This document shows positions 4,624 to 43,974 of a stretch of 64,000 nt of DNA, one piece after another. The stretch covers positions 1 through 64,000 of the forward strand of contig JAJRWI010000037.1 in NCBI GenBank assembly GCA_024276825.1. Direction: 5' to 3'. The position numbers and the translations under genes were made by a program. This stretch comes from an archaeon (GTDB taxonomy: Archaea; Asgardarchaeota; Thorarchaeia; Thorarchaeales; Thorarchaeaceae). Numbering within the stretch: position 1 is the stretch's first letter; every line of letters begins with the position of its first letter. The notes beneath the pieces are model-generated. The model searched no databases. It saw only the letters and a program-made list of their open reading frames with translations, and was not told the origin of the DNA.

Positions 4624-6540
4624 TCAGTTCTCCAGAACACGCTGTACCTCACGGGTCAGAATCTCTTTGACAGTCTTCCCATCTGCCTTGCCGCGCAACT
4701 CTTTCATCAACACGCCCATGAGTCTGCCCACTGCCCTGATTCCATGTTCGTTAATGAAATCAATGTTAGCATTCACCACTTCATGGATTTTTCCCTCAAG
4801 CATATCTGTGCTTATGGCTCCAAGACCCGTCACATCAATTGCCTGATCAACTGATGCAAGTGGGTGTTCGGCCAGATAGGTCAGTATATCTGGAATACCT
4901 TGCGTAGATATTGCACCTTTTGAAACCGCGGTGAACATATCATGAAGATGGTCTTCTGTTATCCTTTCTATATTCACTCCATCTCGGTGAAGGCTGACAA
5001 GAGTGTTTTCGAGTGTGACTGCAATGAGTGTCGGCGATGTATTTGTTTCTCTCACAAGACTCTCAAACAATGGTAGGTAGGTAGATCGTGTGATTTGATG
5101 GGCGAGCTCCCTGCTGAGTCCCAACTCTTTGATGAACCGATCTTCTTTCTCCTCAAGGGTTTCAGGCATATTTCTTCGAATGCGTTTCAATCTCGCCTGT
5201 GTGATCTTGACAGCCCGTACATCAGTTTCTGGGTACATTCGCTCAGCTCCAGGACGAGGCCGGGCATATTTTGTAGTACCATTTGGAAGCGGCACTCTGG
5301 TTTCAGGGGGAACTCCAACAACAGCGGCTTTGGCACGTTTAATCACCGCCCTTAATGCATCTTCGCACTTTGACTTTTCATCAGCAACAATAACAATGGC
5401 GTCCTTTTCATTTGCAGACAGGCTTCTGCGTAGTTCATTGACGTCGTTTTCGGTAATGCCATATTTTGGAAGTTCATCAGTATGAAAGAGACCTCCGACA
5501 CCACCCCAGAACCTGGCATAATCTGCAAGTTCGGTTCCCAGACGTCTTTCAGGTTGAATCTCTTGTCCAAGGAGTCCTGCAAACCCAGGAAGTCGGGCGG
5601 CAAACACTCTTCCCCCCTTCTTTAGGGCCCTTCTTATGACCTTTGATTCAGAGGATTCAAAAACCTTAGTCACATCAAACGTTTCGTCGGCTATTTCTTC
5701 AGGAGTTATGTCCCTCTCAACAAGCAGTTCACGAATTTGAAGCAGGTTAAACTGACGCAATGCCTCAAGTTCGACAACTGTTGAGAGCATGTCGAGTTGT
5801 TGTAGTCCTTTAATCTCAATGATTCCACCATCACGAATAGACACATTCACATCTTGTCGAATTGTCCCGAGACCCCTCTTTACTCGACCTGTGGATCTGA
5901 GAAGAAGTCCCAGGGTCAAGGCAGCCTCTTGAGCCTCATCAGGGGTTCGAATATCAGGGGCAGTTGCAATCTCAATCAGAGGGATGCCCAATCTGTCAAG
6001 TCGGTAAATCCTGAAGTTATTCTTTTCGTCATCAGCAATTTTGCGTGCTGCATCCTCTTCAAGACAGATTGTCTGAATTCCTACTTTCTTATCACCCACC
6101 ATGACTGAGCCGCCCATGGCAACAACGGCCGTTCGTTGAAACCCAGTAGTGTTACTTCCATCAATCACTATTTTTCGCATTGGATGAATCTCATCTACAA
6201 CAGAGGAGCCGAGGTAGGTTGCCATGATTATACATATGTCAATTGACTCATCATCCAAGTTATGAGGTGGTTCTTCATCCATCTCTACAAGGCAAGTTGT
6301 GTCATTGTAATACTCGTAATAGAACATTTTTTTCTTTTGAAACTCAAACAATGCTGCGGGATCGACCTCTCCGAGCTCACTCTGGGTAGGTCTCAGGCGC
6401 CTGATGAAATGCCCATCTGGTTCTTCGTCCCTGATAATTGTTGGACAATGGCAATAGAGCTTGCGTGCTGTGTCTAGTTGTTGATGTAATTCAAGTCCCA
6501 CCATCAGACCCAGTTTGTCATAATCAAGAGATTTCTTCAC
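4624..6540 (-). CDS. gatE: Glu-tRNA(Gln) amidotransferase subunit E
   Basis: GLELHQQL, RKIVIDGSNTTGFQRT, LDRLGIPLIEIAT, RPGAERMYPETD; GTG start at 6540 after GGAGG. Confidence 0.97.
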   Translation of the reverse strand: MKKSLDYDKLGLMVGLELHQQLDTARKLYCHCPTIIRDEEPDGHFIRRLRPTQSELGEVDPAALFEFQKKKMFYYEYYNDTTCLVEMDEEPPHNLDDESIDICIIMATYLGSSVVDEIHPMRKIVIDGSNTTGFQRTAVVAMGGSVMVGDKKVGIQTICLEEDAARKIADDEKNNFRIYRLDRLGIPLIEIATAPDIRTPDEAQEAALTLGLLLRSTGRVKRGLGTIRQDVNVSIRDGGIIEIKGLQQLDMLSTVVELEALRQFNLLQIRELLVERDITPEEIADETFDVTKVFESSESKVIRRALKKGGRVFAARLPGFAGLLGQEIQPERRLGTELADYARFWGGVGGLFHTDELPKYGITENDVNELRRSLSANEKDAIVIVADEKSKCEDALRAVIKRAKAAVVGVPPETRVPLPNGTTKYARPRPGAERMYPETDVRAVKITQARLKRIRRNMPETLEEKEDRFIKELGLSRELAHQITRSTYLPLFESLVRETNTSPTLIAVTLENTLVSLHRDGVNIERITEDHLHDMFTAVSKGAISTQGIPDILTYLAEHPLASVDQAIDVTGLGAISTDMLEGKIHEVVNANIDFINEHGIRAVGRLMGVLMKELRGKADGKTVKEILTREVQRVLEN

Positions 6541-9281: not shown

Positions 9282-9397
9282 AATAATCTGTTAACAAAAG
9301 GAGGCGATAAAGTTAATGAAGTATTACAGTTAATACATGAAGTGACATAATGAATAAAATTAAAACTCTCACGAGAGAAGTCTAATTCGGCAAGTGT

Positions 9398-14134: not shown

Positions 14135-14965
14135 ATGAGGTTCAAAACCTATCTAAGAACACGGCTAAAGGAGATAGTTCCTGACGAAGTTCCCTTGCCA
14201 TCAGGCTTTCATATACTGGGACATGTTGTCCTACTGAAGTTGGAATCGGATGCCATGTCATATGCAGAGGAGATTGGTGATGCGATTTTACAATATAGTA
14301 AGAGGATAAGAACTGTAGCTATTAAAACAGGACCTACAATCAATCAGATTAGAACACCATCTTACAAAGTGATTGCAGGTGACCCTGATACTATTGTGAC
14401 ACACATTGAGAACGGAGTCATTTATCATCTTGATCCCCTGCGGATAACATTCAGTGCAGGGAACAGGGGGGAGAGAGCATACATTGCTAGTATTGCCCAG
14501 CCTTACGAAACTGTAATTGACATGTTCGCCTGCGTTGGTCAGTTCACTCTGCCAATTGCTAAAGTCGGTGGTTGTAGAGTAATATCATTGGAGATTAATC
14601 CTAAAGCATACGAGTTTCTCATTGAGAATATTGAATTAAATGGATTATCAGACAGGGTGAACGCAATCTTAGGAGATTGTAGAGATACAATTCCAATGGC
14701 CACTGCGAATAGAATAGTGATGGGCTTTCTCCATGATACTATCTCGTTCTTGCCTTATGCAATAGATGGTTTGAAGTTGGAGGGTGGAACCATTCATATG
14801 CATGCATTAGTTTATATGGGTGAAACAGCTGAGTTGTGTAATACAATTAATACCTTATGCAAGAAACGGGGATATTTAGCGCAGATTACGCCACGTAAGG
14901 TCAAAAGTTATTCGCCAAAGATGAATCACTACTGTTTTGATATCTCACTGGTAAGAGAGGAATAA
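14135..14965 (+). CDS. Trm5/Taw2 (Met-10+-like) SAM-dependent tRNA modification enzyme
   Basis: HIENG..Y.LD, FS.GN..ER, DMFACVGQF, EINP.A, RIVMG. Confidence 0.9.
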   Translation: MRFKTYLRTRLKEIVPDEVPLPSGFHILGHVVLLKLESDAMSYAEEIGDAILQYSKRIRTVAIKTGPTINQIRTPSYKVIAGDPDTIVTHIENGVIYHLDPLRITFSAGNRGERAYIASIAQPYETVIDMFACVGQFTLPIAKVGGCRVISLEINPKAYEFLIENIELNGLSDRVNAILGDCRDTIPMATANRIVMGFLHDTISFLPYAIDGLKLEGGTIHMHALVYMGETAELCNTINTLCKKRGYLAQITPRKVKSYSPKMNHYCFDISLVREE

Positions 14966-16416: not shown

Positions 16417-16461
16417 ATATTACCTGTAATACAAAGTTTTTCTAATAATACATGTATTACA
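16417..16461. promoter_or_regulatory. Cluster of TGTAATAC/GTATTAC boxes between TATA-like box and ATPase start
   Basis: ATATTAC-C-TGTAATAC (16417-16432) and palindrome TAATACATGTATTA (16446-16459) downstream of CTTATAA (~16394-16400). Confidence 0.7.
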
Positions 16462-16481
16462 AAACATGGAGAATGCATAGC

Positions 16482-17456
16482 ATGACAATCGCGATCCATG
16501 AGAGTGCACTCATAAGACACTTTAATACAAGAAAAGAAGTCCTTCGAAACTGGGAAGAGCATATTGGCTGTCGATTCTCGCCATTCCGTGGATACAAGAT
16601 GCCAGATAGCAGGCTATATGTTGAGCACCCTGATTTCTTGGATAGCATTGTGGATTTAATAATCACTAATGAGAGACATATATTTCTTCGAGGACCTGTG
16701 GGATCAGGAAAGAGCACTTTGATGCTTCTTGCATTACGTGATTTGCCAACACTAGCAGATAGACGTGGAAACAAGTTTATCACAGGATATGTCGGAATGA
16801 CTGGACTTTATGAGAAACAGATGGCTGCTGCCATTGCAGATTCATTAAGAGTGAAATATAGGAGGTCTTGGGAATCCAGTCAAATCATTGAGGCCGTTGC
16901 AAAGGAAAGTGTCAGAAGATATATTGAAGAGAAATGTAGAACTGCATTGTTTATTGAGGATGTTGCTGATAATCAAGAGGCTGCCTTTCATAAGCTTAGG
17001 TATCTTGCAGACCTTCCCACTGAAGAGATGATGCATGAATATCCTGAAGCATTAGACGAACCAATAGTAACTCTAATCATGAGTGGAACAGCAGTGTACT
17101 GGAATGCCATGTTATCATTTTTACCCCAGATTGCAGACAGGACTGAACCACTTGATGTTCCCGCATTAGATGACAGTAAGGCGAGAGAGTTCATTGGCCG
17201 AAGAATAGCGTATGCACAAGGACGTATTGATGAATTCGATCCAAACAATTTTGATGTGTATCCATTTGATGAGGAGGCTATTCGAATCATTAACAGAGCT
17301 GCAAGAGGTAACCCGCGTGATATCAGGATGCTTGCAAGAGGATGTCAACAAGTTGCCGCTGAAAACTTGAGGAAGACAGGTAATCCTGAGGTCACGTCAG
17401 AGATAGCTGAATTGGTCTGTGAGGCCTATGCTACATTACTCAAGGAGGTAAGATAA
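16482..17456 (+). CDS. ExeA/TnsC-like (AAA_22-type) AAA+ ATPase
   Basis: Walker A GPVGSGKS, variant Walker B LFIEDVAD, LIMSGT sensor I, ADR finger, PF..EAI..I..AARGNPR lid; ATG 16482 preferred (ORF track 16452). Confidence 0.85.
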   Translation: MTIAIHESALIRHFNTRKEVLRNWEEHIGCRFSPFRGYKMPDSRLYVEHPDFLDSIVDLIITNERHIFLRGPVGSGKSTLMLLALRDLPTLADRRGNKFITGYVGMTGLYEKQMAAAIADSLRVKYRRSWESSQIIEAVAKESVRRYIEEKCRTALFIEDVADNQEAAFHKLRYLADLPTEEMMHEYPEALDEPIVTLIMSGTAVYWNAMLSFLPQIADRTEPLDVPALDDSKAREFIGRRIAYAQGRIDEFDPNNFDVYPFDEEAIRIINRAARGNPRDIRMLARGCQQVAAENLRKTGNPEVTSEIAELVCEAYATLLKEVR

Positions 17457-17761
17457 TGAGTCTCTTGGGAAAATATCGTAAGGAAGAAGAGCGTCGAGAA
17501 GTTGAGGACAAGGATTCAGTGAGAACAAGGAAGACTACAACTCAGAAACGTTCTGCACAGACAAAAACAAAATCGCCAGACTCGATTCCTAACAAGGAGA
17601 GACGAAGCCCAATTGTTTCATTCTCAATTACAACTGACCTTCGAACCTGTCTTCAAGCAATAAGAAGTACAAAGGCAATTAATTTGAGCATGTGGGTTGA
17701 ACACAAGCTCCGTGAGGCAATTGAGAAAGAGTTTCCTGATCTTGCAAGTGAGTATCTTTAA
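17456..17761 (+). CDS. Ribbon-helix-helix-like DNA-binding protein with charged N-terminal tail
   Basis: TAATG translational coupling and GGAGG RBS; K/R/E/T-rich N-terminal half; IVSFSITTDLRTCLQAI...INLSMWVEHKLREAIEKE fits beta-alpha-alpha RHH. Confidence 0.7.
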   Translation: MSLLGKYRKEEERREVEDKDSVRTRKTTTQKRSAQTKTKSPDSIPNKERRSPIVSFSITTDLRTCLQAIRSTKAINLSMWVEHKLREAIEKEFPDLASEYL

Positions 17762-17786
17762 TAAATGTAATATTTGTAATACGATG

Positions 17787-19181
17787 TCATTGGTGCTCCC
17801 CTAACCATTCTGAATATTCTACAGCTCTTGATATGCAAAGCATTGCGAGGTAAGGTTCATCATAACAGGGAATCTTATTCATCTCGAGCAAATCTTTGCC
17901 GGGCTTTCCAACATCCCCAGCTAGCCAGACACCAACCACTGGCTTTCCAATTGCAGAGATACGAACCCCTTCAAGAGTTCCAGCGGCATGTTCTGTCTGA
18001 GTCATACCTGCAAAGGTTGGCACAGCACAAATTACAAGAAGTGCATCGATATTTGGATCCTTTAATAATAGTTCAGTTGTAATTCTATATTCGCGACGAC
18101 CGCCACTTGCAACAACATCCACAGGGTTTTCAATAGATGCAATTGGCGAGAGGATTTGTTTCAACTCTTTTTTGGTACTAGGGTCCAGTTCTGGAATTTC
18201 TAGGCCAAAGTCATCTGCTGCGTCTGTTGCTAAGACTCCTGCACCACCTGTATTACTAATAATACCAATATTACGACCCTTTGGCAATGGCTGGTAGTCA
18301 AAAATCTTACATATTTCCAAAAGAGAGTCAAAAGTTGGAGCTGTTACACAACCAGCCTGTTTTAGCATCCCATTGAAGACTAGTGTAGATCCTGCCACAG
18401 AACCTGTATGAGAGAGTGTAGCCCTGCTGCCCGCCTTACTGCGACCGCCTTTCATTACAACAATTGGCTTCTTAAGAGCAGCTTCTCTCAGCGATTGATA
18501 AAATTTTCTGCCATCATCAATTCCTTCAACATATACTGCAATAACTGTGCTTTTGGGGTCATTTCCGAAATAATCTATAATCTCCGTAAAACTTACATCA
18601 GCAGCATTTCCAATGCTAGCAAACTTACTGATGCCGATTCGTTTGGCTTTAGTAAGGTATATTGTCATTCCTCCAAGGGCTCCGCTTTGAGAAACAAAAG
18701 CTATATTGCCCCTCTCTGGCATCATTGTAAAAGTGCCATTGAATAATCGGCTATTTGAAATACCAACACAGTTTGGACCGATGAACCGCACACCAGCTTG
18801 CTTTGCAGCCTTAATTAGATCCTTTTCAATCTGTTTGCCGTTAGACCCAGTTTCGCTGAAGCCACCAGAGATTATAACTGCATGTCTGGCACCTGCTTTT
18901 CTAACTTCGGGCATAAGGGAAGGACAGTATTTTGCTGCTACGGCTATAATCACAAGATCAACTGGTTCGGGCAGTTCTGAAAGACTTCCATATGCTTTAA
19001 TGCCCATGACATACTCTCTGTTTTTTGTAATAGGAAATGTTTCAACCTCTGAGGCAAGTAAGTTCATTAGAATAGAATTTCCAAGTTTACGATAATCAGC
19101 TGATGCCCCAACGAGAGCAATCTTTCTTGGATGGAAAAATTGGTCAATCTCAGTATGTATGGCACCTATATTGGAAGTCAT
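17787..19181 (-). CDS. acdA: ADP-forming acyl-CoA synthetase, alpha subunit
   Basis: IALVGAS...KLG, IISGGFSETG, IGPNCVG, SQSGALG, SHTGSVAG phospho-His, NTGGAGVL..D, NPVDV. Confidence 0.92.
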   Translation of the reverse strand: MTSNIGAIHTEIDQFFHPRKIALVGASADYRKLGNSILMNLLASEVETFPITKNREYVMGIKAYGSLSELPEPVDLVIIAVAAKYCPSLMPEVRKAGARHAVIISGGFSETGSNGKQIEKDLIKAAKQAGVRFIGPNCVGISNSRLFNGTFTMMPERGNIAFVSQSGALGGMTIYLTKAKRIGISKFASIGNAADVSFTEIIDYFGNDPKSTVIAVYVEGIDDGRKFYQSLREAALKKPIVVMKGGRSKAGSRATLSHTGSVAGSTLVFNGMLKQAGCVTAPTFDSLLEICKIFDYQPLPKGRNIGIISNTGGAGVLATDAADDFGLEIPELDPSTKKELKQILSPIASIENPVDVVASGGRREYRITTELLLKDPNIDALLVICAVPTFAGMTQTEHAAGTLEGVRISAIGKPVVGVWLAGDVGKPGKDLLEMNKIPCYDEPYLAMLCISRAVEYSEWLGEHQ

Positions 19182-19250
19182 GATCCATGAGAACTCGATG
19201 GAGTGATTTATGTCTGACGTTGATAGCCAATTTTTAAATATGTAATACGA

Positions 19251-20513
19251 TTAATACTGATGTTTCTCTAGCGTTCTAAGTAGACGTTTTATTCTGGAGG
19301 AATGTCTACAGCTAAATGATTTTAGAAACTCATTTAGGGTCATGATCACTTCTGGCAGCTTTTTTGCTATCTGAATGATTGCATCACCTGCAGTTTCTAA
19401 GTATTCCTTATTTTTGCTCGTGCAGATAATTTCTAGTAGGGCATTGACTGCAGACTCGTGATAATAATGACCGAGAGCCTTGATCGAAATTTGGCCCAAT
19501 CGTGGATCATTCAACGAGATTATTTCTTCCAGAGTCGATATCGAGTTAATATGACGTATTGCAAGATGGCAGTCAAGGCATTTTAGCATCTGACTGAAAT
19601 TATCAGGGTGTCCCTTGGCACGATACATGTCCAATGTCGTCTTTGTGACAAAACTGATTGTGGGCATTGCATATTTACTGCCAAGCCTCATGATACCCTC
19701 AAGGTCTTGTTTAATTACCAGATCAAGCAATTCTAGATATTCTGGAGCAGTTATTACTTCATCTATTCTATCATTGTATGTTTGATGTGAAGCCCGAACT
19801 CTGATGTGATGTTTTGATACGTCTGATACTGGTAATACAGATAATACAGACTCGAAGAGCTGAGGATTAATTAAATATCCCTTCACTCCAATATCTGAGA
19901 GGGTTCTTCTCCCAATTTCTGTGAGCCATAGATTAGTGATGTCAATAAGTCCTTGATAATAGAATAAATTTACACTTGATATTTGTTTATTTAGTATTCT
20001 AATAAATTGATTACGTATTTTAGGGGATGCATTATATTGCCCATCAATATTTAGGAAGAGCGTTTCCCCCATATTTAGGTGTTCCTCAGTCTTTTCAATG
20101 ATGAATTGGGTGACAAGTCCAGTTGCTGAGGAGTGTGATTCTGCTTCAGCTGCCAGTTCAAGTATATCTGATGTTGAAACAGGAATTGCCTCAAATCCTG
20201 AACATGAGAACAATTCGAAAACTATTTCACGATATTTCAATGGCTCAATCAGAGTAGTTTGTCCCCAAGTAGATATCGGGCTTTCATAATGCAGTTTTTT
20301 TGATTCAGCAAGACAGTTGATTGCATAGTGCCAATCATATGTCTGTTCATAGAGTGCAATAAGATCGATGACATCACGGATCCTCCTATCACCAATTGCA
20401 TTAATAATTTTTTGAGTATGATTCTTTCGCTTCATTTGCAATATTCTTTCACGACTTATTCTGATGATCCGTTTTCGATTTTCAGAGTCCACATCAATCA
20501 CGTTCTGAAACAT
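19251..20513 (-). CDS. Hypothetical protein with C-terminal HEAT-like repeats
   Basis: 420-aa ORF; SIKALGHYYHESAVNALLEII HEAT-like pattern. Confidence 0.65.
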   Translation of the reverse strand: MFQNVIDVDSENRKRIIRISRERILQMKRKNHTQKIINAIGDRRIRDVIDLIALYEQTYDWHYAINCLAESKKLHYESPISTWGQTTLIEPLKYREIVFELFSCSGFEAIPVSTSDILELAAEAESHSSATGLVTQFIIEKTEEHLNMGETLFLNIDGQYNASPKIRNQFIRILNKQISSVNLFYYQGLIDITNLWLTEIGRRTLSDIGVKGYLINPQLFESVLSVLPVSDVSKHHIRVRASHQTYNDRIDEVITAPEYLELLDLVIKQDLEGIMRLGSKYAMPTISFVTKTTLDMYRAKGHPDNFSQMLKCLDCHLAIRHINSISTLEEIISLNDPRLGQISIKALGHYYHESAVNALLEIICTSKNKEYLETAGDAIIQIAKKLPEVIMTLNEFLKSFSCRHSSRIKRLLRTLEKHQY

Positions 20514-20610
20514 GCATGATTATATGCTGAAATAAATAACCTATATTGACTTGAATGTATTCAAAGAAGCGCGGTATTATTAATACATGTATTACTATTA
20601 TTGTTGTCAA

Positions 20611-20773
20611 GGTTGCGCGTAGATACATTGAGCTTGGACAAAGGCGGACACTAGTAAAATAAAGAGCTATTTAAAGATCTGAATTTATGCGAGTTTATCA
20701 GGTTTCATGAGAAATTCTATCTTGAAATGTGCCCAGTGCCGTTTTCTGGGTGAACAGGGCTCAGATATCCAAG
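20611..20773. repeat. Dispersed repeat family 2, copy B (with hairpin)
   Basis: Colinear with 4236-4394; hairpin GCCCAG(20731-36)/CTGGGT(20746-51). Confidence 0.8.
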
Positions 20774-20943
20774 ATTGTTCAATAAAAATGAAGTGCCATC
20801 AATCAAGTATTCTTTTTAGGATATTGGTGACAGTTGTAGGCGATTAATTAATGTAATACCAAATCAAAGCTCACAATAATGTTGGATAATACTCTTAAAT
20901 ATGCTGTTCTAAGAATAGAACTAAGTAGTTCCAATATTATATT

Positions 20944-21132
20944 ATGAGCGAGTGTGTCGTGTACACATGAGACAGTGAGAGCTGGATGATGAAAAGCCGG
21001 GTTCGCTCAGCTAAACGTCATCAGCATCTCTATCTCCTCAATGCATACCAATCTCATAGATGATGCGGTGATATTGACTGAGAGAACTTGAGAAGGATCC
21101 AGCACAGGTCTCGTCGCGACACTCTCGTGCAT
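20944..21132 (+). ncRNA. Unassigned structured ncRNA candidate (~190 nt)
   Basis: Long closing stem, nested ATGAGAC/GTCTCGT and GCTGGAT/ATCCAGC helices, UUCG-capped arm, GCATCTCTAT/ATAGATGATGC arm; G-U pairs favour + strand; GC-rich island followed by a T-run. Confidence 0.65.
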
Positions 21133-21183
21133 TCTTTTTTATAATTATTCCATTCGATAATAACTGTAGTAGTTGTAATACAA

Positions 21184-21711
21184 TTATGATCTCTTCTTTG
21201 AACTCTCAGTTTTTAGTGTCAAAGGCGAAATGAGTTCATTAAGAAACTGAAGTATCGTTTCCTCAGTGATGCGGTAGCTTTCAACCTCTTCTTTGGTAAG
21301 GTGCATCTTTCCAGACAACATTTCACGTATTCGCCTATAATCACCAATTTTTGATGCAAGTTCTTCAAATGGTCTAAATATTGTATAATCGAAAAGACCA
21401 AGATATGCTAGAAGGATCATAGTATAAAAGCACCGAATCAGATTTCTTCTTGCCTGTCGCAGTGTCCTATTGAATGCGCCGCGAGATACTCCCTCACTTT
21501 TTTTTCGGCGCAAACTTGCCTTTTTTTCGTAGGGAATGTGCCAGTCAAATTGATCCTCGAGCACAAGATCTACCAATAAGGTTTCGAGTTGCACTTCAGT
21601 CAAAACAGAGTTCTTAGTGAGTAATCTAAGAATTGGTTCACGTAAAGTTTCTTGGATATTATATATTATTGAGCGCAGCTCTCTATCCAGTTCTTGCTTT
21701 CTATCAGACAT
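21184..21711 (-). CDS. Hypothetical HTH-type DNA-binding protein
   Basis: LTEVQLETL ... GVSRGAFNRTLRQARRN HTH-like recognition helix; GGTGG RBS. Confidence 0.7.
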   Translation of the reverse strand: MSDRKQELDRELRSIIYNIQETLREPILRLLTKNSVLTEVQLETLLVDLVLEDQFDWHIPYEKKASLRRKKSEGVSRGAFNRTLRQARRNLIRCFYTMILLAYLGLFDYTIFRPFEELASKIGDYRRIREMLSGKMHLTKEEVESYRITEETILQFLNELISPLTLKTESSKKRS

Positions 21712-21872
21712 GAGTTTCCACCATCAGGTTTGAATTGAAAGGGATAATCCGTTTTTTTATAAGAAAGGGCATATTAACAGAGATAATTATTTGCCATTTT
21801 GGTGTTATTGTATGGATACAAAAATGTATACATTTAAGCTTATTAATAAGTTGCTTTTCAAATTCTGGGACA

Positions 21873-21901
21873 GCACATAGATGCATAGGGCTTGGACAAA
21901 G
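21873..21901. repeat. Dispersed repeat family 2, truncated copy C (5' part only)
   Basis: GCACATAGATGCATAGGGCTTGGACAAAG matches 20615-20643 at 24/29. Confidence 0.65.
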
Positions 21902-21928
21902 TTGAAATTAGCATGCCAGATTGGATTA

Positions 21929-22348
21929 TTATCTCATGGGTAGAGTCCATTCGGAATCAGGTGGAATTTGTACAAAGCCAAGGATGAGATTTCCACGTAC
22001 CTCATCATATTTGAAGGTTCCAAATGTGAATTTTTCGCCATTCTTGGTCCATTCAAATCGTCCATCTTTTGTTAAATGCTGAAAAAGTAACCTACATTGA
22101 CGCCGTATTACTACAAATAGGTTTTTGTATCTTCGACGTTGAGATGGTCTAATCCCCCATTCTGAAAGAATGAATTTGTTGGCCAATGAGTTACTAGATA
22201 TTAATAATGATATTTTTACTTCTTTTCTATTCCTGACCTGATCTTCAATTAATAAACGAAGAATATCGGGAATCTTCGCCAAGACTGATGGAGATACCTC
22301 TGGTTCTTGATAGATTGATGATTTGGATTTACGTATATGAGTCTTCAA
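21929..22348 (-). CDS. Hypothetical basic protein
   Basis: 139-aa ORF co-oriented with the HTH gene; no family recognised. Confidence 0.6.
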   Translation of the reverse strand: MKTHIRKSKSSIYQEPEVSPSVLAKIPDILRLLIEDQVRNRKEVKISLLISSNSLANKFILSEWGIRPSQRRRYKNLFVVIRRQCRLLFQHLTKDGRFEWTKNGEKFTFGTFKYDEVRGNLILGFVQIPPDSEWTLPMR

Positions 22349-22557
22349 GTTTAATCGGGCATTTGTGTGAATAATTCCTTAATAACACCTAGAAAATTTG
22401 TAATGTTAGTATTACAATTAATACGATGGTCGTGAATTGCCGCTCTCAGTGTATTAATATTCCAACTTCAAAAATGATGAATGCAAGCAGTGGAATTAGT
22501 GAGCCTAATGAGCCAGAGCTCACTTAACGATTACTAATCGAATGGAGTCCAAGTTCA

Positions 22558-24888
22558 TTGAAAAGAAGAGCAATAATCCACATTCAAGGAATTGTACAGG
22601 GAGTGGGATTTAGGCCATTTATATACAGAGTCGCAAACAAGTTGGGATTAAAGGGATATGTATTGAATCTTGGTGATGCAGGAGTTCGAGTTATAGTTGA
22701 GGGTGATCAATCTCTGATTCAGGAGTTAGTAAGTACAATTGAAACCAGGCCACCGTCTATCTCTGTGATTACTCGGCTGAGTGTTCAATGGGACCATTAC
22801 TCAAATGAGTTTGATAATTTCTTTATTGAGAAGTCCAGATCAAAGCGATCATCTCATGCTGCACCTATTATTCCTCCAGACATTGCCATTTGTGATGATT
22901 GTGTTGATGATTTATTTAGAGAGGATTCTAGATGGTACGAGTACGCCTTCACATCATGTGCTGCATGCGGACCAAGATATTCAACAATAATAGACTTGCC
23001 TTATGACAGGCCAAATACAACAATGGTAGATTTTCCTTTATGTAATACATGTAATAATGGTTATACAGATCCCATGGACAGACGATATCATGCCCAGACA
23101 ACTGCTTGTGAGAGATGTGGTCCCTCTTATAGTATACTAGATAATCAGGGTAAAAGAATTAGCAGAAGTAGAGTGGTTCAAAGAACTGCAGAATTATTGG
23201 ATCAAGGATTCATATTTGCTATTGAGGGCATAGGTGGAACGCATATTGTAACAAAAGTGAGTGATGATGCTCCAATACAACTTCTTAGGAATAGAAAGAG
23301 GAGACCACAAAAACCCTTTGCAATAATGGTTAAAGACATTGAAGCATTACATGAATTTTGTAGTCCAACTCAATTTGAGATTGAACTGCTGAGTTCATGG
23401 AGAAGGCCAATTGTTCTAGTTAAGAAGAGCCAAGATGTTGGAAACCGCCAGATCAAAGATCTCATATCACCAGGTCTTGATACAATTGGTGTGATGCTAC
23501 CCTATTCGGCTCTGCACCATCTACTTTTCAAATACAGCCACGAATCGGCATTTGTTATGACTAGTGCAAATCCATCTGGGGTACCTATGTATATAGAACC
23601 CATGAAGATAGTCAAAGAATTAAAAGGGATCGTTGATTACTTCTTGGTTCATAATAGAAGAATTCATCAACGTGTGGATGACTCTGTGATCAAGGCAGTT
23701 GATGAGAGAGCGCTGTTCATTCGACGAGCTCGAGGATTTGTTCCCGAACCCATCGCAGTAGGCATGCCTGAGAATGATCATGTAGCAATAGCAGTGGGTC
23801 CAAAGGAAAAAGTCACAGGTTCAATCTTGACACATGGTATGATATATACGACCCAGCATATTGGAGATACTGATAATGTTGAATGTGTGGAGTTTCTTGA
23901 TAATGCATTGAAGAATCTTATGCATCTGATTGGAGTTGACAGACCAACTGTCATTGCCTGTGACCTTCATCCAGACTTCTTGACAACCGAGTACGCGGAG
24001 AGATGGGCAGAACAAGAGGGAGTACCACTTGTTAAGATACAACACCACCATGCTCATCTGGCCAGTATCATGGTTGATAACTCTATTAATGCCAATACTA
24101 GTATTATTTGTATTACAGCCGACGGTTATGGATATGGGAATGATGGAAGCGCGTGGGGTGGAGAGATATTATTGGGGAACTATCAGAACTTTCGCAAGGT
24201 TGGAGGAATTTTGTCTAGTAATTATTTGGGAGGTGACCTTGCAGCCCGTTATCCAATCAGACCGTTAATAGGTTTCATCAAGGATCGAATGAGTCCTGAT
24301 GAGATTCACAAACTAGTCGGATCGGTTCCAATCGGGCCTGTTTCTCTTGCAACAGAGGACAAAATCTCAATCATTCAGGAAGCCACCCTGAAAAGAATAA
24401 AGACCATAATGACATCAAGTGCGGGAAGGTTTCTTGATGCTGTGGCAATTGCTCTAGGGATATGTTCTGAGAACAAGTACGATGGCGAGTGCCCAATGAA
24501 GCTTGAGTCATTCGCACTTGAGTCTGATCGAAATATCAAGCATAGATTTGTTTCTGACAATCAGGGTGTCTTTGTTGACCTATCAGAGTTTCTGCTAGAG
24601 GTTATTGATATGAAACAAAGGGGCCTTGATCCCAGAAAGATCGCCTATATTGCTCAATATCATCTAGGTGAGGCGTTGGCAACTTTGGCTTGCGATATTA
24701 GTGACAGAGAGGGCGTTGATTACATTGGTTTTTCAGGAGGAGTTGCATTGAATCGAATAATTACCAATGCAGTTGTTTCCACTGTTCAGTCAAGAGGTAA
24801 AATTGTACTACTTCATAGTCAAGTCCCCCCTGGAGATGGTGGAATTTCCATAGGGCAAGCAGCGATAGCAGCTGCGAATCTAGAGTAG
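22558..24888 (+). CDS. hypF: [NiFe]-hydrogenase maturation carbamoyltransferase HypF
   Basis: GIVQGVGFRPF, Zn fingers C..C, CGPRYS...LPYDRPNTTM, RRYHAQ, QHHHAH, PPGDGGISIGQ. Confidence 0.97.
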   Translation: MKRRAIIHIQGIVQGVGFRPFIYRVANKLGLKGYVLNLGDAGVRVIVEGDQSLIQELVSTIETRPPSISVITRLSVQWDHYSNEFDNFFIEKSRSKRSSHAAPIIPPDIAICDDCVDDLFREDSRWYEYAFTSCAACGPRYSTIIDLPYDRPNTTMVDFPLCNTCNNGYTDPMDRRYHAQTTACERCGPSYSILDNQGKRISRSRVVQRTAELLDQGFIFAIEGIGGTHIVTKVSDDAPIQLLRNRKRRPQKPFAIMVKDIEALHEFCSPTQFEIELLSSWRRPIVLVKKSQDVGNRQIKDLISPGLDTIGVMLPYSALHHLLFKYSHESAFVMTSANPSGVPMYIEPMKIVKELKGIVDYFLVHNRRIHQRVDDSVIKAVDERALFIRRARGFVPEPIAVGMPENDHVAIAVGPKEKVTGSILTHGMIYTTQHIGDTDNVECVEFLDNALKNLMHLIGVDRPTVIACDLHPDFLTTEYAERWAEQEGVPLVKIQHHHAHLASIMVDNSINANTSIICITADGYGYGNDGSAWGGEILLGNYQNFRKVGGILSSNYLGGDLAARYPIRPLIGFIKDRMSPDEIHKLVGSVPIGPVSLATEDKISIIQEATLKRIKTIMTSSAGRFLDAVAIALGICSENKYDGECPMKLESFALESDRNIKHRFVSDNQGVFVDLSEFLLEVIDMKQRGLDPRKIAYIAQYHLGEALATLACDISDREGVDYIGFSGGVALNRIITNAVVSTVQSRGKIVLLHSQVPPGDGGISIGQAAIAAANLE

Positions 24889-24907
24889 AGTGCTTGAGAT
24901 GGATGAG

Positions 24908-25513
24908 TTAGGAGATTGCATTATACCCCATCTTGACAGCTTTGGTATTGACTGCCTTGAATCTCTTGGGAAACGAATCCCTCACAACAGAGAGTGCTGT
25001 TTCTTTTGATATTGGAATGAAACCAGAGCCAATAATAGCCCCAAGCATGACCATGTTGAGTGCCTTTGAACTGCCAGCTTCAAGAGCGAGTTTCATTGCA
25101 TCAAATTCGAATATATCATCAGTGATCTCACCAAGCAAGGATACAATCTTCTCATGTGCAGGGTATTCAGCTTGACCCATTGATACTGCAACAGGATAGA
25201 CAATATGAGTGCTCATTATTATCTTACCCTGAGGCTTGAGCAACTTGGCCTCTCGAAGTGTTTCAATGGGTTCGAATCCAACTAGAATGTCGGCAGTGCC
25301 CGGGTCAATAATTGGGCCTAGGGCCTTTTCGCCAATGCGTACAGTACATATGACGTGGCCACCTCGTTGGGCCATGCCATGAATCTCGCCAACACGTACA
25401 TTGTAAGACTCTTGCAGTGCTGCCCTAGCCATGATCTCTGCAAGGGTTAATACACCCTGGCCACCAACGCCCGATATGACTATATTAATTGTATTACTTG
25501 TATTATCAATCAT
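24908..25513 (-). CDS. iorB: Indolepyruvate:ferredoxin oxidoreductase beta subunit
   Basis: GVGGQGVLT, EIHGMAQRGG, FEPIE.LR, NMVMLGA; ATG at 25513 just after iorA. Confidence 0.95.
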   Translation of the reverse strand: MIDNTSNTINIVISGVGGQGVLTLAEIMARAALQESYNVRVGEIHGMAQRGGHVICTVRIGEKALGPIIDPGTADILVGFEPIETLREAKLLKPQGKIIMSTHIVYPVAVSMGQAEYPAHEKIVSLLGEITDDIFEFDAMKLALEAGSSKALNMVMLGAIIGSGFIPISKETALSVVRDSFPKRFKAVNTKAVKMGYNAIS

Positions 25514-25514
25514 G

Positions 25515-27410
25515 TTATGCACTCTCCTCTTGTTTAATTGCTTTTTGCGGGCAGACATAAGTACAAGTTCCACAGTAATTGCATAATGTTTCATCAATCA
25601 TTGCCTTTCCCGTTTCTGGATCCAAATACATTGCAGGACATGATAAACGATTCAGACATCGTTTGCATGAGTTACAAAGTTCAGAATCAACATAGTATTT
25701 GGGAGGATAAACACCGGTCTTTCTCCGTTCTGCGGCGGAGAGTAATGCACAAGGGGCTTTTGATATAATCACTGCAGGTGCATGATTCTCCCTAGTCCAT
25801 TTTACCATGTCCTTGACAGCGGCAATAAGATCTATCAGCGATTCTAATGGGTCAATGACCTTTACATATTTGACACCCAGTCCGCGACATACTTCTGCAA
25901 TATCCAGAGGTGGCACCTGTTCTTGCATCCCAGTGACACCAGTGCCAGGATGTGGTTGATGTCCGGTCATTGCGGTGGTACGGTTATCAAGTACAACAAG
26001 ACAGATTCTATGTTGGTTGTAGACTGCATTTGCTAATCCTGGTAATCCAGATGCAAAGAATGTACTGTCACCAATTGTGGCGACCACATCCTGATCAGTG
26101 ACAGAGGCAATTCCACATGCAGTAGTAATGGAGGATCCCATATCAAAGAGAATATCAGCAGTTTCCAGTGGAGGAGCAATGCTGAGAGTATAACAGCCTA
26201 TATCTGAGGGGTAAATTGCCTTACCACGAGTAGCAACTCGGATCGCATAGTAAGATGCCCGATGAGGACAGCCTGCACACAGAAGAGGGGGTCTTGGGGG
26301 CAATTCATTAAAGCCTGATGCTTTTGCCTCTATCTTTTCCCAATTAATAGGGGTATTACAGTTGATAACCTTGCATAAGGCCTCTGTGACAATCCGTGTA
26401 CTGTATTCGAATGTTCTTGGAAAGAAGCCTTGCTCTTTACCAATAATCTCAACTGAGATGTTGTTCAATTGAGCAATTCGACGAGCGTGAGTTTCTAAGA
26501 AAGGCTCGAGCTCCTCGACAATCAATATACGTTTGTGTCTAGAAAGAAAGTCAGCAATCTTTTTCTCAGGTAAAGGATGGGTCATTCCCAATTTGAGAAT
26601 CTCAGCACTTTGAGTAATTGAAGATAATGACTCTAGTACGTAATTGTAAGACACACCACTTGTGATGATTCCCAAGTTACCCTCACCAACAGTGAAGTTT
26701 AATGGGGTGGTTTCAGAGATCTCCTTCGCAATCTCAATCTGCTCCAGCAGTTTTGGATGTCGCTCTCTTGCCACTGCGGGGATTGGAACAAACCTGAATG
26801 GTTCTTTCTCGAAACTCACTTTATCGGGGCGCGGAGGTATTTTACCAAATTTGACAGGACCACGTGTATGATTGATGCGAGTCGTTGTTCGAAAGAGAAT
26901 TGGCAGCTCCAGTTTCTCAGAAATCTTATATGCTTCAAGAAGCATTGATTTTGACTCGGCTGGATCAGAAGGCTCCAGCATAGGCATGTTAGCCATCAGA
27001 GCATAATATCGACTGTCATTCTCATTCTGAGAGCTCCACATGCTGGGGTCATCTGCTACAACAATCACCATGCCAGCTCTCACGCCAACATAAGCAAGAG
27101 TGAGAAATGGATCAGCAGCAACATTAAGTCCGGGCCCCTTGCATACCATCATTGATCTCACGCCGGCAATAGCAGCAGCTCCAGCGACCTCAATTGCCAC
27201 TTTCTCATTAGTAGAGAATTCAAAGTAGAAATTTTCCAGATGTGGTGCCATAAATGTGAGATTATTTCCAATCTCACTACTTGGAGTTCCAGGGTAAAGT
27301 GCCACAAGTCTAACTGCAGCTTCTAGGACACCTCTTGCTATTGCTTCGTTTGATAAAAGTAGAACAGTTTTCCCAGTAGAGTCTTCCAATAGCTCTTTCG
27401 GCTTTACCAA
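25515..27410 (-). CDS. iorA: Indolepyruvate:ferredoxin oxidoreductase alpha subunit
   Basis: NEAIARG, YPGTPSSEI, NEKVA.E, RPP.LCAGCPHR, GDSTFF, AMTGHQPHPG, C-terminal 2x[4Fe-4S]. Confidence 0.97.
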   Translation of the reverse strand: MVKPKELLEDSTGKTVLLLSNEAIARGVLEAAVRLVALYPGTPSSEIGNNLTFMAPHLENFYFEFSTNEKVAIEVAGAAAIAGVRSMMVCKGPGLNVAADPFLTLAYVGVRAGMVIVVADDPSMWSSQNENDSRYYALMANMPMLEPSDPAESKSMLLEAYKISEKLELPILFRTTTRINHTRGPVKFGKIPPRPDKVSFEKEPFRFVPIPAVARERHPKLLEQIEIAKEISETTPLNFTVGEGNLGIITSGVSYNYVLESLSSITQSAEILKLGMTHPLPEKKIADFLSRHKRILIVEELEPFLETHARRIAQLNNISVEIIGKEQGFFPRTFEYSTRIVTEALCKVINCNTPINWEKIEAKASGFNELPPRPPLLCAGCPHRASYYAIRVATRGKAIYPSDIGCYTLSIAPPLETADILFDMGSSITTACGIASVTDQDVVATIGDSTFFASGLPGLANAVYNQHRICLVVLDNRTTAMTGHQPHPGTGVTGMQEQVPPLDIAEVCRGLGVKYVKVIDPLESLIDLIAAVKDMVKWTRENHAPAVIISKAPCALLSAAERRKTGVYPPKYYVDSELCNSCKRCLNRLSCPAMYLDPETGKAMIDETLCNYCGTCTYVCPQKAIKQEESA

Positions 27411-27507
27411 TCAGTTTACCTCCATGCAGCCCATAATCAGTGTGCATTTGAACCCTATGGCATGTTTCAATGTTGCGCTTTCGGATTGGCTATAAAAATA
27501 AGCATTT

Positions 27508-27519
27508 GAACACGTGTTC
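27508..27519. promoter_or_regulatory. Palindrome GAACACGTGTTC (site 1)
   Basis: Perfect 12-bp palindrome, repeated at 28157 and in variant form at 27841. Confidence 0.6.
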
Positions 27520-27578
27520 GAAGGTTTGATAGTCCGGTATTAGGATCTTGAGCCAGAAAATAGAAAATAATCAACATC

Positions 27579-27748
27579 ACCCCTTTGTTTCTTATGGAGA
27601 TTATATTAAAATTAAGTACAGCAAGCGTGTACTAGTATAATTATAAAATGGATATAAATGCAAGATGGTAAAAATATTATAAATACTTTTTGATATTTGT
27701 ATTATATCTATATTACAAACTCTTATTTTCCAGTGGAAATGATGGGGT
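27579..27748. other. Candidate replication origin: inverted ORB pair flanking an AT-rich DUE-like stretch
   Basis: Minus-strand TCCATAAGAAACAAAGGGGT (27579-27598) and plus-strand TTCCAGTGGAAATGATGGGGT (27728-27748) match the archaeal ORB consensus; ~130 bp AT-rich spacer. Confidence 0.75.
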
Positions 27749-27808
27749 TCAAGTTAGATGATTTTCCATTTGCATTATCTTTAGATCTAAGTCTAAAATA
27801 TAAAGAAA

Positions 27809-27834
27809 TTATTACATGTATTACAAATATTACA
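27809..27834. repeat. Three tandem 9-bp-phased TATTACA boxes next to the origin
   Basis: TTATTACA-T-GTATTACA-A-ATATTACA. Confidence 0.8.
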
Positions 27835-27851
27835 ATAATGGTTCACGTGTT

Positions 27852-28145
27852 CTAAACTTCTTTTTCAACTCTGAAGACATGAAGGTTCATGATATCTTGA
27901 TAGCGACTGAAGAGCTCATCAAAAAGTGTCCTGTGTTCAACAGGTACAATAATTGTGGAATCTGCAATTATTCTAGATCCTGGACACTCTTCTAATAGTC
28001 CAACCTTTCTTTTTACTTTGACACCACTCTTTGTCTTCCAAGAGTAAGTGTATCCATATAGCTCCTTAGTAAAGGACACTCGTCTTGAATTTGCATCTCT
28101 TGAGTTGATGAAATCATAGATGTATAATAGATCAGTCATCTTCAT
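27852..28145 (-). CDS. Small Cas2/VapD-like ferredoxin-fold protein (stand-alone)
   Basis: N-terminal LYIYDF, RRVSF.KELYG, IADSTIIVP pattern, 97 aa; no cas genes or array in the window. Confidence 0.5.
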   Translation of the reverse strand: MKMTDLLYIYDFINSRDANSRRVSFTKELYGYTYSWKTKSGVKVKRKVGLLEECPGSRIIADSTIIVPVEHRTLFDELFSRYQDIMNLHVFRVEKEV

Positions 28146-28156
28146 TCAGAATATAT

Positions 28157-28168
28157 GAACACGTGTTC
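28157..28168. promoter_or_regulatory. Palindrome GAACACGTGTTC (site upstream of Cas2-like gene)
   Basis: Perfect palindrome 11 bp before the start of 27852..28145. Confidence 0.6.
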
Positions 28169-28305
28169 CATTAATCAAACTGAATATTACATCAAACGGC
28201 TGGATTGTCGGTGTGTAAGATTTAAAACATAGATTCATTCGCAAACTTGTGTGAGTCAGAGAAATCTACCACGATGTTACTAGTAATTGCACTGGAGGAA
28301 TTCTC

Positions 28306-31595: not shown

Positions 31596-31633
31596 AATTC
31601 TTTACCACCCAGGAGGTAATGCCATATCTATCC

Positions 31634-32067
31634 ATTCACAATTAACATTGGCAATAATCAAATAAATGTGAGTATGTGAATTGAACATATTGACACAATA
31701 TACTCATACTATGTAAATAGCTATATCCGCTCCATCCAGCAGTTCTCTTAAATATTATTGACTGAGATTGCCGAATTATGATAAATAAAACATGTATAAG
31801 TCTGTTTCATTGCTTTTGAACGTTATCTCCACAGATTTCATCATTCACATATCTCATTATTTTGTGAATGAAAAAATACTCATGTCATATCTCTTATTGT
31901 CATATTCCAGTGGAAACAAAGGGGTGGCACCATTCACATGATATTTGTGTCATTATATCCCTCCATTTGTTGAAAAGAACTTTTTGAATTCCAATAATGA
32001 ATATTATATTCACAATAATGGCGCCATTCACAGGCATTCATAGTGAGCCAATGTGAAAGATGTGAAA
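31634..32067. repeat. Array of ATTCACA/TGTGAAT heptamers in AT-rich intergenic region
   Basis: Exact copies at 31634, 31675, 31843, 31863, 31932, 32008, 32026; one-mismatch copies at 32036, 32052, 32061. Confidence 0.8.
31905..31925 (+). promoter_or_regulatory. Origin recognition box (ORB)
   Basis: TTCCAGTGGAAACAAAGGGGT, essentially the archaeal ORB consensus with G-string. Confidence 0.8.
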
Positions 32068-32125
32068 CATAAACTTTGAGCAAATTTTATTGAGTTCTAA
32101 TAAATCTCACAGCTCTTAACTTATC

Positions 32126-41412: not shown

Positions 41413-41542
41413 CTATAACTCACAATATTGAGAAAGAAACATCATTTAAAATTGACGACCTCAATTGTGACTGCAAGACAACCTTTTTATCCAAATATTG
41501 CAGAAAAACCTTGAACTCCAACAAAAGGGGTCCTGATTGCAT

Positions 41543-41854
41543 ATGACACAGAAAGCACGAATTAGGCTCTCAAGTACCAGTACTGAACACCTTGATAGTG
41601 TATGTAATCAAATCAAGAGGATTACCCGAAAGACTGGTGTCAGGATGGCTGGTCCAATTCCTCTCCCAACTCGACGAATGGTGATTCCAACTAGGAAGAC
41701 CCCCTGTGGTCAGGGCTCAGAATCATGGGACAAATGGGAAATGCGAATACACAAACGTTTGATTGACATTGATGCAGATGAACGTGCAATCAGACAAATC
41801 ATGCGTATTAACATTCCTGACTCTGTCTATATTGAAATAGAACTGACTGGCTAA
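41543..41854 (+). CDS. rps10: 30S ribosomal protein S10 (uS10)
   Basis: [40 protein letters not shown]. Confidence 0.98.
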
Positions 41855-43761: not shown

Positions 43762-43974
43762 TTAAGGGAATAGGCTAGTAATACTATTCCAACTGTCTTG
43801 TAATACTTGTAATAATGATGTCACAACATCTTGTGCCCATCCAGTTGCTTGAAGAATTACTGCAATTACAATCGATACAGTAACAACAGCAATCCCCAAT
43901 AAAAGACTCTCTTCTACAAGTGGTCCGCCTCTCTCATCATTTAATGGATTTTTCTCACACCTCATAAATAACAC
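43762..43974 (-). CDS. Flp/type IV pilin-like small protein
   Basis: Class III signal-like NDERG|GPLVEE followed by a hydrophobic helix; GAGGTG RBS; downstream of TadA-like ATPase. Confidence 0.65.
   Translation of the reverse strand: MLFMRCEKNPLNDERGGPLVEESLLLGIAVVTVSIVIAVILQATGWAQDVVTSLLQVLQDSWNSITSLFP

Follow-up and report, generated by a model that had tools for sequence, protein, structure and literature searches.

A two-gene AAA+ ATPase operon and a private field of phased palindromes beside a likely replication origin in Thorarchaeaceae

The operon and its two products

The window analysed here, by which we mean the whole stretch of 64,000 nucleotides (nt), is contig C28:1-64000 of genome G000 (GenBank assembly GCA_024276825.1, contig JAJRWI010000037.1), a Thorarchaeaceae genome of 2.94 Mb in 82 contigs that is 98% complete. 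On its plus strand lies a two-gene operon for an AAA+ ATPase of 324 amino acids (aa; 16482..17456) and a tailed protein of 101 aa (17456..17761), and the operon stands within a field of short palindromic repeats. An initial annotation, made from the sequence alone, had proposed that these parts form a new chromosome partition or cell-cycle system near oriC, and the present computational analysis follows up that proposal.

The translational coupling described for the two genes is plain: the stop codon of the ATPase gene overlaps the ATG of the small gene (TAATG), and GGAGGT lies upstream. An alternative in-frame ATG at 16452 would give an ATPase of 334 aa. Since the homologues (324 aa) begin at ATG 16482, this codon is preferred and is, on sequence comparison, most likely the true start. 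With this start, the repeat array at 16445-16461 would lie upstream of the gene and not within it.

A profile search found the operon in 69 of the 76 genomes of the family, as a single copy per genome, with an additional short second fragment in one assembly. The small gene accompanies the ATPase gene in all 12 loci examined, which bears out the operon as a real and co-conserved unit. The ATPase is 80-94% identical across genera. Within a 60-kb block around the operon that is syntenic across the family, its identity is 80-84%, compared with about 45-75% for most neighbours, and only TFE-alpha and one 105-aa protein equal or exceed it. Homologues of the small protein were found only in the Thorarchaeota group, and the named homologues of both proteins are nearly all from Candidatus Thorarchaeota.

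Only weak Pfam matches, to AAA_22, NB-ARC and AAA_16, were obtained for the ATPase, and its scores fall below the cut-offs of AAA_22 (23.6 bits vs 27), of the ExeA/GspA-type model TIGR03015 (24.4 bits vs 324.5) and of the orc1/cdc6 model TIGR02928 (12.6 bits vs 181.3). An exhaustive HMMER search of 1.8 billion cluster representatives returned just 25 matches at E <= 0.001. Its conserved features include the Walker A (GPVGSGKST) and Walker B (FIEDVAD) motifs, sensor 2 (GNPR) and R220 as a candidate arginine finger. In the structure model, which has a mean predicted local distance difference test score (pLDDT) of 90.9, an AAA+ base and lid are the only domains, and the nearest folds are those of Cdc6/Orc1 (Z 19.3-18.6), followed by TnsC (18.1) and MuB (17.1). 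The alignment with archaeal and fly Cdc6/Orc1 spans ATPase residues ~22-324 and covers about 250-270 residues. When the ATPase family profile was compared with PDB sequences, human ORC1 was matched over positions 64-293 (E 2.5e-5), and this is the sole solved protein matched across the AAA+ module, the others being matched little beyond the P-loop region.

The ATPase model contains no C-terminal winged helix, since the chain stops after the lid helices, and Cdc6_C domains were found elsewhere in the genome only at C28:52699-52971 and on contig C35. The ATPase thus has the AAA+ initiator module of Orc1/Cdc6 but neither the winged helix nor a score that reaches the family model. Fold comparison suggests that it belongs to the ORC/Cdc6-TnsC-MuB group. 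It had been called ExeA/TnsC-like: the TnsC side of this name holds, as TnsC and MuB come within about 1-2 Z units of the best neighbours, but Orc1/Cdc6 is closest and the ExeA and AAA_22 cut-offs are not reached. The AAA+ fold (Cdc6/Orc1, TnsC, MuB) agrees with the remark in the initial annotation that no known class of partition motor fits this ATPase, and membership of the ORC/Cdc6-TnsC-MuB group places the module outside the type I, II and III partition systems.

The small protein consists of an invariant N-terminal peptide (MSLLGKYRKEE), a disordered linker of about 30 variable residues (Ser/Thr/Lys/Glu) and a conserved C-terminus resembling a ribbon-helix-helix (RHH) domain (residues ~50-98). 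In its model, two helices (60-73 and 77-92, pLDDT 87-94) follow a conserved extended segment, SPIVSFSI, and the monomer has the strand-helix-helix topology of the RHH superfamily. With an exhaustive aligner, about half of the best 50 structural neighbours were RHH proteins, among them omega, ParD2, NikR, PutA, pCXC100 ParB, SegB, ORF56 and SvtR; these alignments span the whole domain at a root-mean-square deviation (rmsd) of 2.4-3 Å, but with Z of at most 3.4. For omega, NikR, CopA and SvtR, the whole-domain alignment has an rmsd of 2.4-2.8 Å. A Foldseek search of PDB with the model gave nothing at E <= 0.001, a profile search of PDB sequences gave chance-level matches only, and no Pfam match was obtained. 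On the strength of the model, the C-terminus is likely an RHH domain, and the predicted architecture of a tail joined to an RHH-like C-terminus is upheld by the invariant N-terminal peptide and by the many RHH proteins among the structural neighbours.

A private field of phased palindromes and the likely origin

The boxes listed around the operon in the initial annotation are all present in the sequence. The motif TGTAATAC occurs 17 times in the window vs 1.67 expected, a number reached in none of 100 shuffles, and 13 of the 77 copies in the 2.94-Mb genome lie within 9.3-28 kb. Three geometries of these boxes had been distinguished. The boxes behind them are real, but all three geometries are one element, in which two adjacent units of the 7-bp palindrome GTAWTAC stand in 9-bp phase on either strand. 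The unit is found 206 times genome-wide (0.07 per kb), with 22 units in 6-44 kb and 19 in 6-28 kb. When a phased pair is defined as an exact GTAWTAC unit with a unit of at most one mismatch 9 bp away, there are 17 pairs in 6-44 kb and one in the remaining 2.9 Mb, i.e., 17 of the 18 pairs belong to this zone. Among GTAWTAC pair spacings of 5-15 bp, none other than 9 bp is enriched. A second rule, requiring two TGTAATAC units 9 bp apart with a total of at most two mismatches, places 11 of the 12 arrays of the genome within 6306-43815. Likewise, TAATAC-N3-TAATA is found 11 times genome-wide and 10 of these are in the window, where the corresponding spacings of 8, 10 and 11 bp occur 0-1 times.

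At the operon itself, two promoter-side arrays (16417-16433 and 16445-16461) lie between a TATA-like box and the ATG, and the space between two convergent genes holds a three-unit array (17757..17782) that overlaps the stop of the small gene. Towards the start of the window, arrays are found within the Trm5/Taw2 gene close to its 3' end (14837..14853), 40-56 nt upstream of the GH1 gene start (9321..9337), and on YYEYYN codons within a 659-aa gene (6306..6322), where the identical 17-mer is present in four of the six genera compared. Beyond the operon, the ADP-forming acyl-CoA synthetase gene holds an array (18250..18274) and has another 60-76 nt upstream of its start (19241..19257), and the HEAT-repeat gene likewise has one inside (19832..19847) and one upstream (20574..20595), the latter containing TAATACATGTATTA, which is the same as at 16446. 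These are followed by arrays 3 nt past the stop of a 175-aa gene (21165..21181), in the divergent gap between a 139-aa gene and hypF (22409..22424), and within hypF, where a three-unit array falls on CxxC zinc-finger codons (23041..23066) and a further array lies at 24101..24117. Three phased units occupy the N-terminal codons of a POR-gamma-like gene with repeated Asn-Thr (25483..25505), and a three-unit array (27809..27834) is located 62 bp from the right-hand box of the likely origin described below. An outlying array (43799..43815) follows the glmS stop. Although non-coding DNA makes up only 16% of the zone, it holds 12 of the 22 units; the other 10 are intragenic, and several arrays are located at 3' ends of genes or between convergent genes.

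Searching for full origin recognition boxes (ORBs) with the pattern TCCA-N3-GAAA-N3-6-GGGG gave six in the genome, three of which are in the window, and ORBs are found at syntenic positions in related genomes. Two of the three form an inverted pair (27580..27747; 27580-27598 on the minus strand and 27729-27747 on the plus strand) that flanks an AT-rich stretch of about 130 bp. This pair is the likely replication origin, about 10 kb from the operon. The third ORB (31906..31924, plus strand), which is conserved at the syntenic place in related genomes, falls in an AT-rich gap (31596-32125) upstream of a 207-aa gene. Cumulative G-C peaks at 25-31 kb on C28, and in a relative, G011, a sharp V-shaped minimum of T-A skew is seen at 380 kb, beside an ORB at 382,210. 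Since the skew component differs, being a G-C switch in G000 and mainly a T-A switch in G011, the signal is not clean and is used only as supporting evidence for the origin call based on ORBs.

The field spans from about 6 kb to the ORB pair at 27.6 kb and has the operon in its middle. The idea of a regulon centred on the origin is therefore kept in part: a likely origin does lie 10 kb from the operon, but it is the operon that forms the centre of the field, and the ORB pair marks the end of it. The initiator gene orc1/cdc6 (51811..53007, plus strand; Cdc6_C 77.7 bits) is 35 kb from the operon. In the 18 family genomes that have both on one contig, this distance is about 26-60 kb, and mostly about 35 kb.

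Next to the ORB pair lies the gene for a 97-aa protein (27852..28145, minus strand), whose homologue likewise stands next to ORBs in Jord- and Odin-type genomes. A perfect 12-bp palindrome, GAACACGTGTTC, occurs at 27508-27519 and 28157-28168, and a variant, GTTCACGTGTTC, at 27841-27852; together these copies enclose both the ORB pair and the gene for the 97-aa protein and are candidate sites of a second, unrelated protein. At a second orc1/cdc6 locus (contig C35:26303-26357), two mini-ORBs (TCCAGTGGAAA) are located directly upstream of the gene, with a lone GTATTAC about 20 bp further. This lone unit is without a phased partner and may be a chance occurrence, at a frequency of about one unit per 14 kb.

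Conservation in the family and covariation beyond it

The sites were compared among 12 family loci for the arrays at the operon and among six genera for codons and the syntenic zone. In 11 of the 12 loci, a promoter array follows a TATA-like box and stands 20-45 nt ahead of the operon ATG, and 10 of the 12 have an array directly after the stop of the small gene. In five other genera, phased arrays cluster in the same syntenic zone; when 220 kb of G011 were scanned, all arrays were within 352.9-393.4 kb. A congeneric assembly without this region, G001, has zero phased pairs in 3.2 Mb, and the motif is thus not equally dense where the operon is absent. We considered G001 as a natural knock-out, lacking both operon and motif, and rejected it: the assembly is a scaffold joined by 100-N stretches from which the syntenic region is simply missing, and it therefore shows only the pair-free remainder of a congeneric genome.

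Sites within genes are held at the DNA level, at synonymous positions. At the acyl-CoA synthetase site, five of six codons are identical in six genera, compared with 6% of the invariant-residue codons gene-wide, and at the hypF site at 24101, three of four invariant-residue codons are identical in six genera, compared with 4% gene-wide. The N-terminal stretch encoded by the POR-gamma-like gene is otherwise variable, and the repeats seem to force Asn-Thr codons on it. The CxxC codons of hypF at 23041-23066 (TGT AAT ACA TGT AAT) themselves spell phased units. The array there may be partly a coding coincidence, and because it stands on zinc-finger codons, it was not counted as independent evidence of an intragenic site.

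Across 301 genomes of the phylum, a profile search found full-length ATPase orthologues in families f1, f2, f3, f7, f19, f21 and f27, and none in the largest other families sampled (0/68, 0/28 and 0/21). The source names of the bins that carry orthologues are Thor, Odin, Freyr/Jord and Heimdall/Gerd. In each of the five non-Thor families checked, the ATPase gene is located 2.5-10 kb from an orc1/cdc6 gene. Three non-Thor genomes read by eye have a small RHH-like gene after the ATPase gene and an ORB nearby, and a small RHH-like gene also follows the ATPase gene in three further loci read for the covariation comparison. Homologues of the 175-aa, 97-aa and 207-aa genes of the window accompany the pair elsewhere.

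The repeat type can be followed together with the type of RHH protein. The Heimdall-related family f27 retains the tail, as MSLLQKYRKEE, and the GTAWTAC repeats, and its phased pairs are located beside the operon (four of four in G240, all three sites in G264 and eight of nine in G293). In G240, whose G+C is about 30%, arrays recur at intervals of roughly 150-200 bp along a 1.1-kb stretch directly after the small gene; this stretch (G240:C6:92500-93600) contains six to seven GTAWTAC arrays and no open reading frame longer than 72 aa. Families f19 and f7 have an RHH strand of the form NFNVR(M/L)P, another tail and, as detected by a phased-palindrome search, the palindrome GATATC in 13-bp phase. 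In a closed 3.6-Mb genome, all six GATATC pairs lie within 11.4 kb around the operon; in a second genome, all three are on the contig of the operon; and each of two Jord genomes has a single pair, in or just before the ATPase gene. Generic k-mer enrichment revealed no repeat in the Jord and Odin regions. Lineages with the other RHH type carry another private repeat, which speaks for the original proposal, and this correspondence of repeat type and RHH type is the strongest evidence so far that the repeats are what the small protein reads.

Readings of the module and its neighbourhood

We infer the binding to DNA, the contact between tail and ATPase, the oligomerisation and the cellular role of the module. 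The reading that we place first, while holding it tentatively, is a three-part nucleoprotein system on the origin side, resembling a partition cassette and containing an ORC/Cdc6-like AAA+ ATPase, which marks, organises or segregates origin DNA. A narrower version is possible but doubtful: here an AAA+ ATPase derived from ORC/Cdc6 and without winged helix, aimed by a tailed RHH adaptor at a private centromere-like field, would be a motor for segregation or origin cohesion.

In such a system, RHH dimers would each read one GTAWTAC palindrome and would bind cooperatively to two or three units 9 bp apart. Binding to the array between the TATA-like box and the operon ATG would give autorepression. 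The other ~15 arrays, which extend over ~22 kb up to the ORB origin except for one that lies apart at 43.8 kb, would load the origin flank with RHH protein. The flexible linker would then present MSLLGKYRKEE to the ATPase, which may oligomerise on DNA in the ATP state in the manner of ORC, TnsC and MuB, and the tail would recruit or switch the ATPase. The probable result would be that the origin region, once replicated, is marked, compacted, paired or segregated.

The module has several points in common with the type Ib partition cassettes (ParF-ParG of TP228, delta-omega of pSM19035) and SegA-SegB: a two-gene operon with the nucleoside triphosphatase (NTPase) gene first; a small, probably RHH-type protein with a flexible N-terminal tail, encoded downstream in the place of the centromere-binding protein; iterated short direct and inverted sites beside the operon and at its promoter, where they imply autoregulation; and omega, pCXC100 ParB and SegB among the structural neighbours of the small protein. 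The compact non-coding array block directly after the operon in f27 is a further likeness. In ParA-type systems the adaptor tail stimulates the NTPase of the motor, and plasmids or chromosomes are stabilised; the feature observed here in the corresponding tail is the invariance of MSLLGKYRKEE. Unlike these systems, the NTPase is an AAA+ protein, not a deviant Walker-A ATPase of the ParA/MinD fold, and the sites in Thorarchaeota are spread over more than 20 kb and written into genes. The AAA+ fold of the presumed motor also differs from the actin-like motor of type II (ParM) and the tubulin-like motor of type III (TubZ).

With eukaryotic ORC1/Cdc6 and archaeal Orc1/Cdc6 proteins such as A. pernix ORC1/ORC2 and P. 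aerophilum Cdc6, the ATPase shares the AAA+ base and lid and a gene position on the origin side. Unlike them, it ends after the lid, without a C-terminal winged helix, and scores far below the family cut-off; the RHH protein presumably confers DNA specificity in trans, at GTAWTAC sites and not at ORBs. TnsC and MuB are the AAA+ ATPases with which transposons select their targets; they form ATP-dependent filaments or rings on DNA under the control of a terminal peptide of a partner. The ATPase resembles them in fold (Z 17-18) and in having no sequence-specific DNA-binding domain of its own, but its neighbours are housekeeping and metabolic genes, with no transposase (TnsB/MuA) or TniQ-like genes nearby, and it belongs to a core, single-copy chromosomal pair in conserved synteny. 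In MatP-matS and RacA-ram, site-specific binders mark one chromosomal domain, and MatP contains an RHH fold. The confinement of sites to one chromosomal domain is common to these systems and the present one, whereas their domains extend over hundreds of kb, they have no dedicated AAA+ partner and their proteins are unrelated.

Several points weigh against a system that marks, organises or segregates origin DNA. To our knowledge, no partition system has an AAA+ motor. About five arrays stand at the position of archaeal repressor sites, between TATA and ATG, and the box is similar to the one described for aCcr1, a repressor of the cell cycle. A sister family (G025) retains the operon, yet it has one unit at the promoter only and no field, and no repeat was identified for the Odin-type lineages. 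The RHH fold matches have low Z, and neither operon protein reaches any curated family cut-off. In addition, because the whole 60-kb region is syntenic in the family, the clustering of arrays in relatives is not fully independent evidence.

The best surviving alternative, which we nevertheless consider unlikely, is a local regulon, in which an RHH repressor like aCcr1 or CdrS autoregulates its operon and represses the neighbouring genes, with the ATPase as co-regulator or nucleotide-dependent switch. Some non-initiator Orc1/Cdc6 paralogues function as regulators. This explanation draws on the arrays located 20-80 nt upstream of five gene starts (GH1, operon, acyl-CoA synthetase, HEAT gene and 139-aa gene), on the operon array kept between TATA-like box and ATG in 11 of 12 loci, and on the excess of units in intergenic DNA (12 of 22 in the 16% of the zone that is non-coding). 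It also draws on the aCcr1-box, a similar 9-bp element acting from the same position. The similarity pointed out in the initial annotation is borne out by the published 9-bp box, A(T/G)G(A)TA(G)A(T/G)TACN, of aCcr1, which is described as a small RHH factor, without a described tail or ATPase partner (bioRxiv 10.1101/2022.07.07.499082). As in aCcr1 of Sulfolobales and CdrS of haloarchaea, an RHH or RHH-like protein is here associated with a 9-bp GTA..TAC palindromic box, found in one or two copies between TATA and ATG. Their boxes, however, are located at promoters of cell-division genes genome-wide, whereas the present sites are private to one zone with 10 of the 22 units inside genes. The constraint at synonymous positions of intragenic sites, together with the arrays between convergent genes, argues against a role at promoters only. 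Several arrays are at 3' ends, the neighbouring genes are functionally unrelated, and in f27 the arrays follow the operon as a regular block in 1.1 kb of non-coding DNA, not at promoters. From one family to another the neighbouring genes differ but the link to orc1/cdc6 and ORBs is retained, and this counts against a local regulon.

An accessory role in initiation is quite unlikely in our estimation. The RHH protein would set the ORC-like ATPase beside ORB-bound Orc1/Cdc6, for co-assembly or for control of MCM loading or firing. Consistent with this are the fold, to which Orc1/Cdc6 is closest, and ORC1 as the sole profile match over the full module. An array abuts an ORB in G000 (62 bp), G013 (11 bp) and G021 (~55 bp), the gene pair is located 2.5-10 kb from orc1/cdc6 in the five other families, and at the second cdc6 locus, on C35, the lone GTATTAC and the pair of mini-ORBs are only about 20 bp apart. 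Against it, most arrays are kilobases away from ORBs and on one side of them, the f27 array block follows the operon at about 10 kb from cdc6, and the ATPase reaches 12.6 bits where the Orc1/Cdc6 model demands 181. Moreover, the search for the system came out empty in the largest Asgard families sampled, which presumably also rely on Orc1/Cdc6.

A remnant of a mobile element, be it a captured partition cassette of plasmid or viral origin, a captured toxin-antitoxin pair or a captured defence pair, is hardly credible: pairs of ATPase and RHH genes with flanking repeats are typical of plasmids, and the G+C of the zone (0.37-0.42) is below that of the genome (0.436), but the pair is single-copy among housekeeping genes (TFE, PAN, NAC, Trm5) with 60-kb synteny throughout the family and 80-94% identity across genera, PADLOC gave zero matches in a defence search, and there is no integrase or transposase among the neighbours annotated between 8 and 44 kb.

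The known archaeal segregation candidates (SegAB and related systems) are ParA-based, and ORC/Cdc6 proteins, the nearest relatives of the ATPase, have expanded into a multi-subunit complex in eukaryotes. Literature searches, including an Asgard replisome survey, gave no description of a module of ATPase, RHH protein and repeats. This module is kept in several Asgard classes (Thor, Odin, Jord/Freyr and a Heimdall-related family). If it segregates or organises the origin, it would represent a new motor class for DNA partition, in which an ORC-like ATPase is aimed at DNA by a separate adaptor and works away from initiation. If it controls initiation, it would be a new level at which origins are regulated in the archaea most closely related to eukaryotes. 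Under either reading, the compact f27 cassette of operon and 1.1-kb array block is a ready test object.

Among the neighbours, the 175-aa protein (21184..21711, minus strand) has no membership in Pfam, NCBIfam or PADLOC, and its Atlas matches are unnamed archaeal clusters only; its homologue directly adjoins the ATPase-RHH pair in Jord- and Odin-type genomes. The segment 34779-43743, which extends from the 659-aa Ig-like protein to glmS and has the outlying array at its edge, has the opposite orientation in four (G011, G013, G021 and G008) of the five relatives compared, the inversion being in this genome. Within the syntenic block, the highest conservation is that of the 105-aa protein at 41537-41854, which is 91-95% identical across genera.

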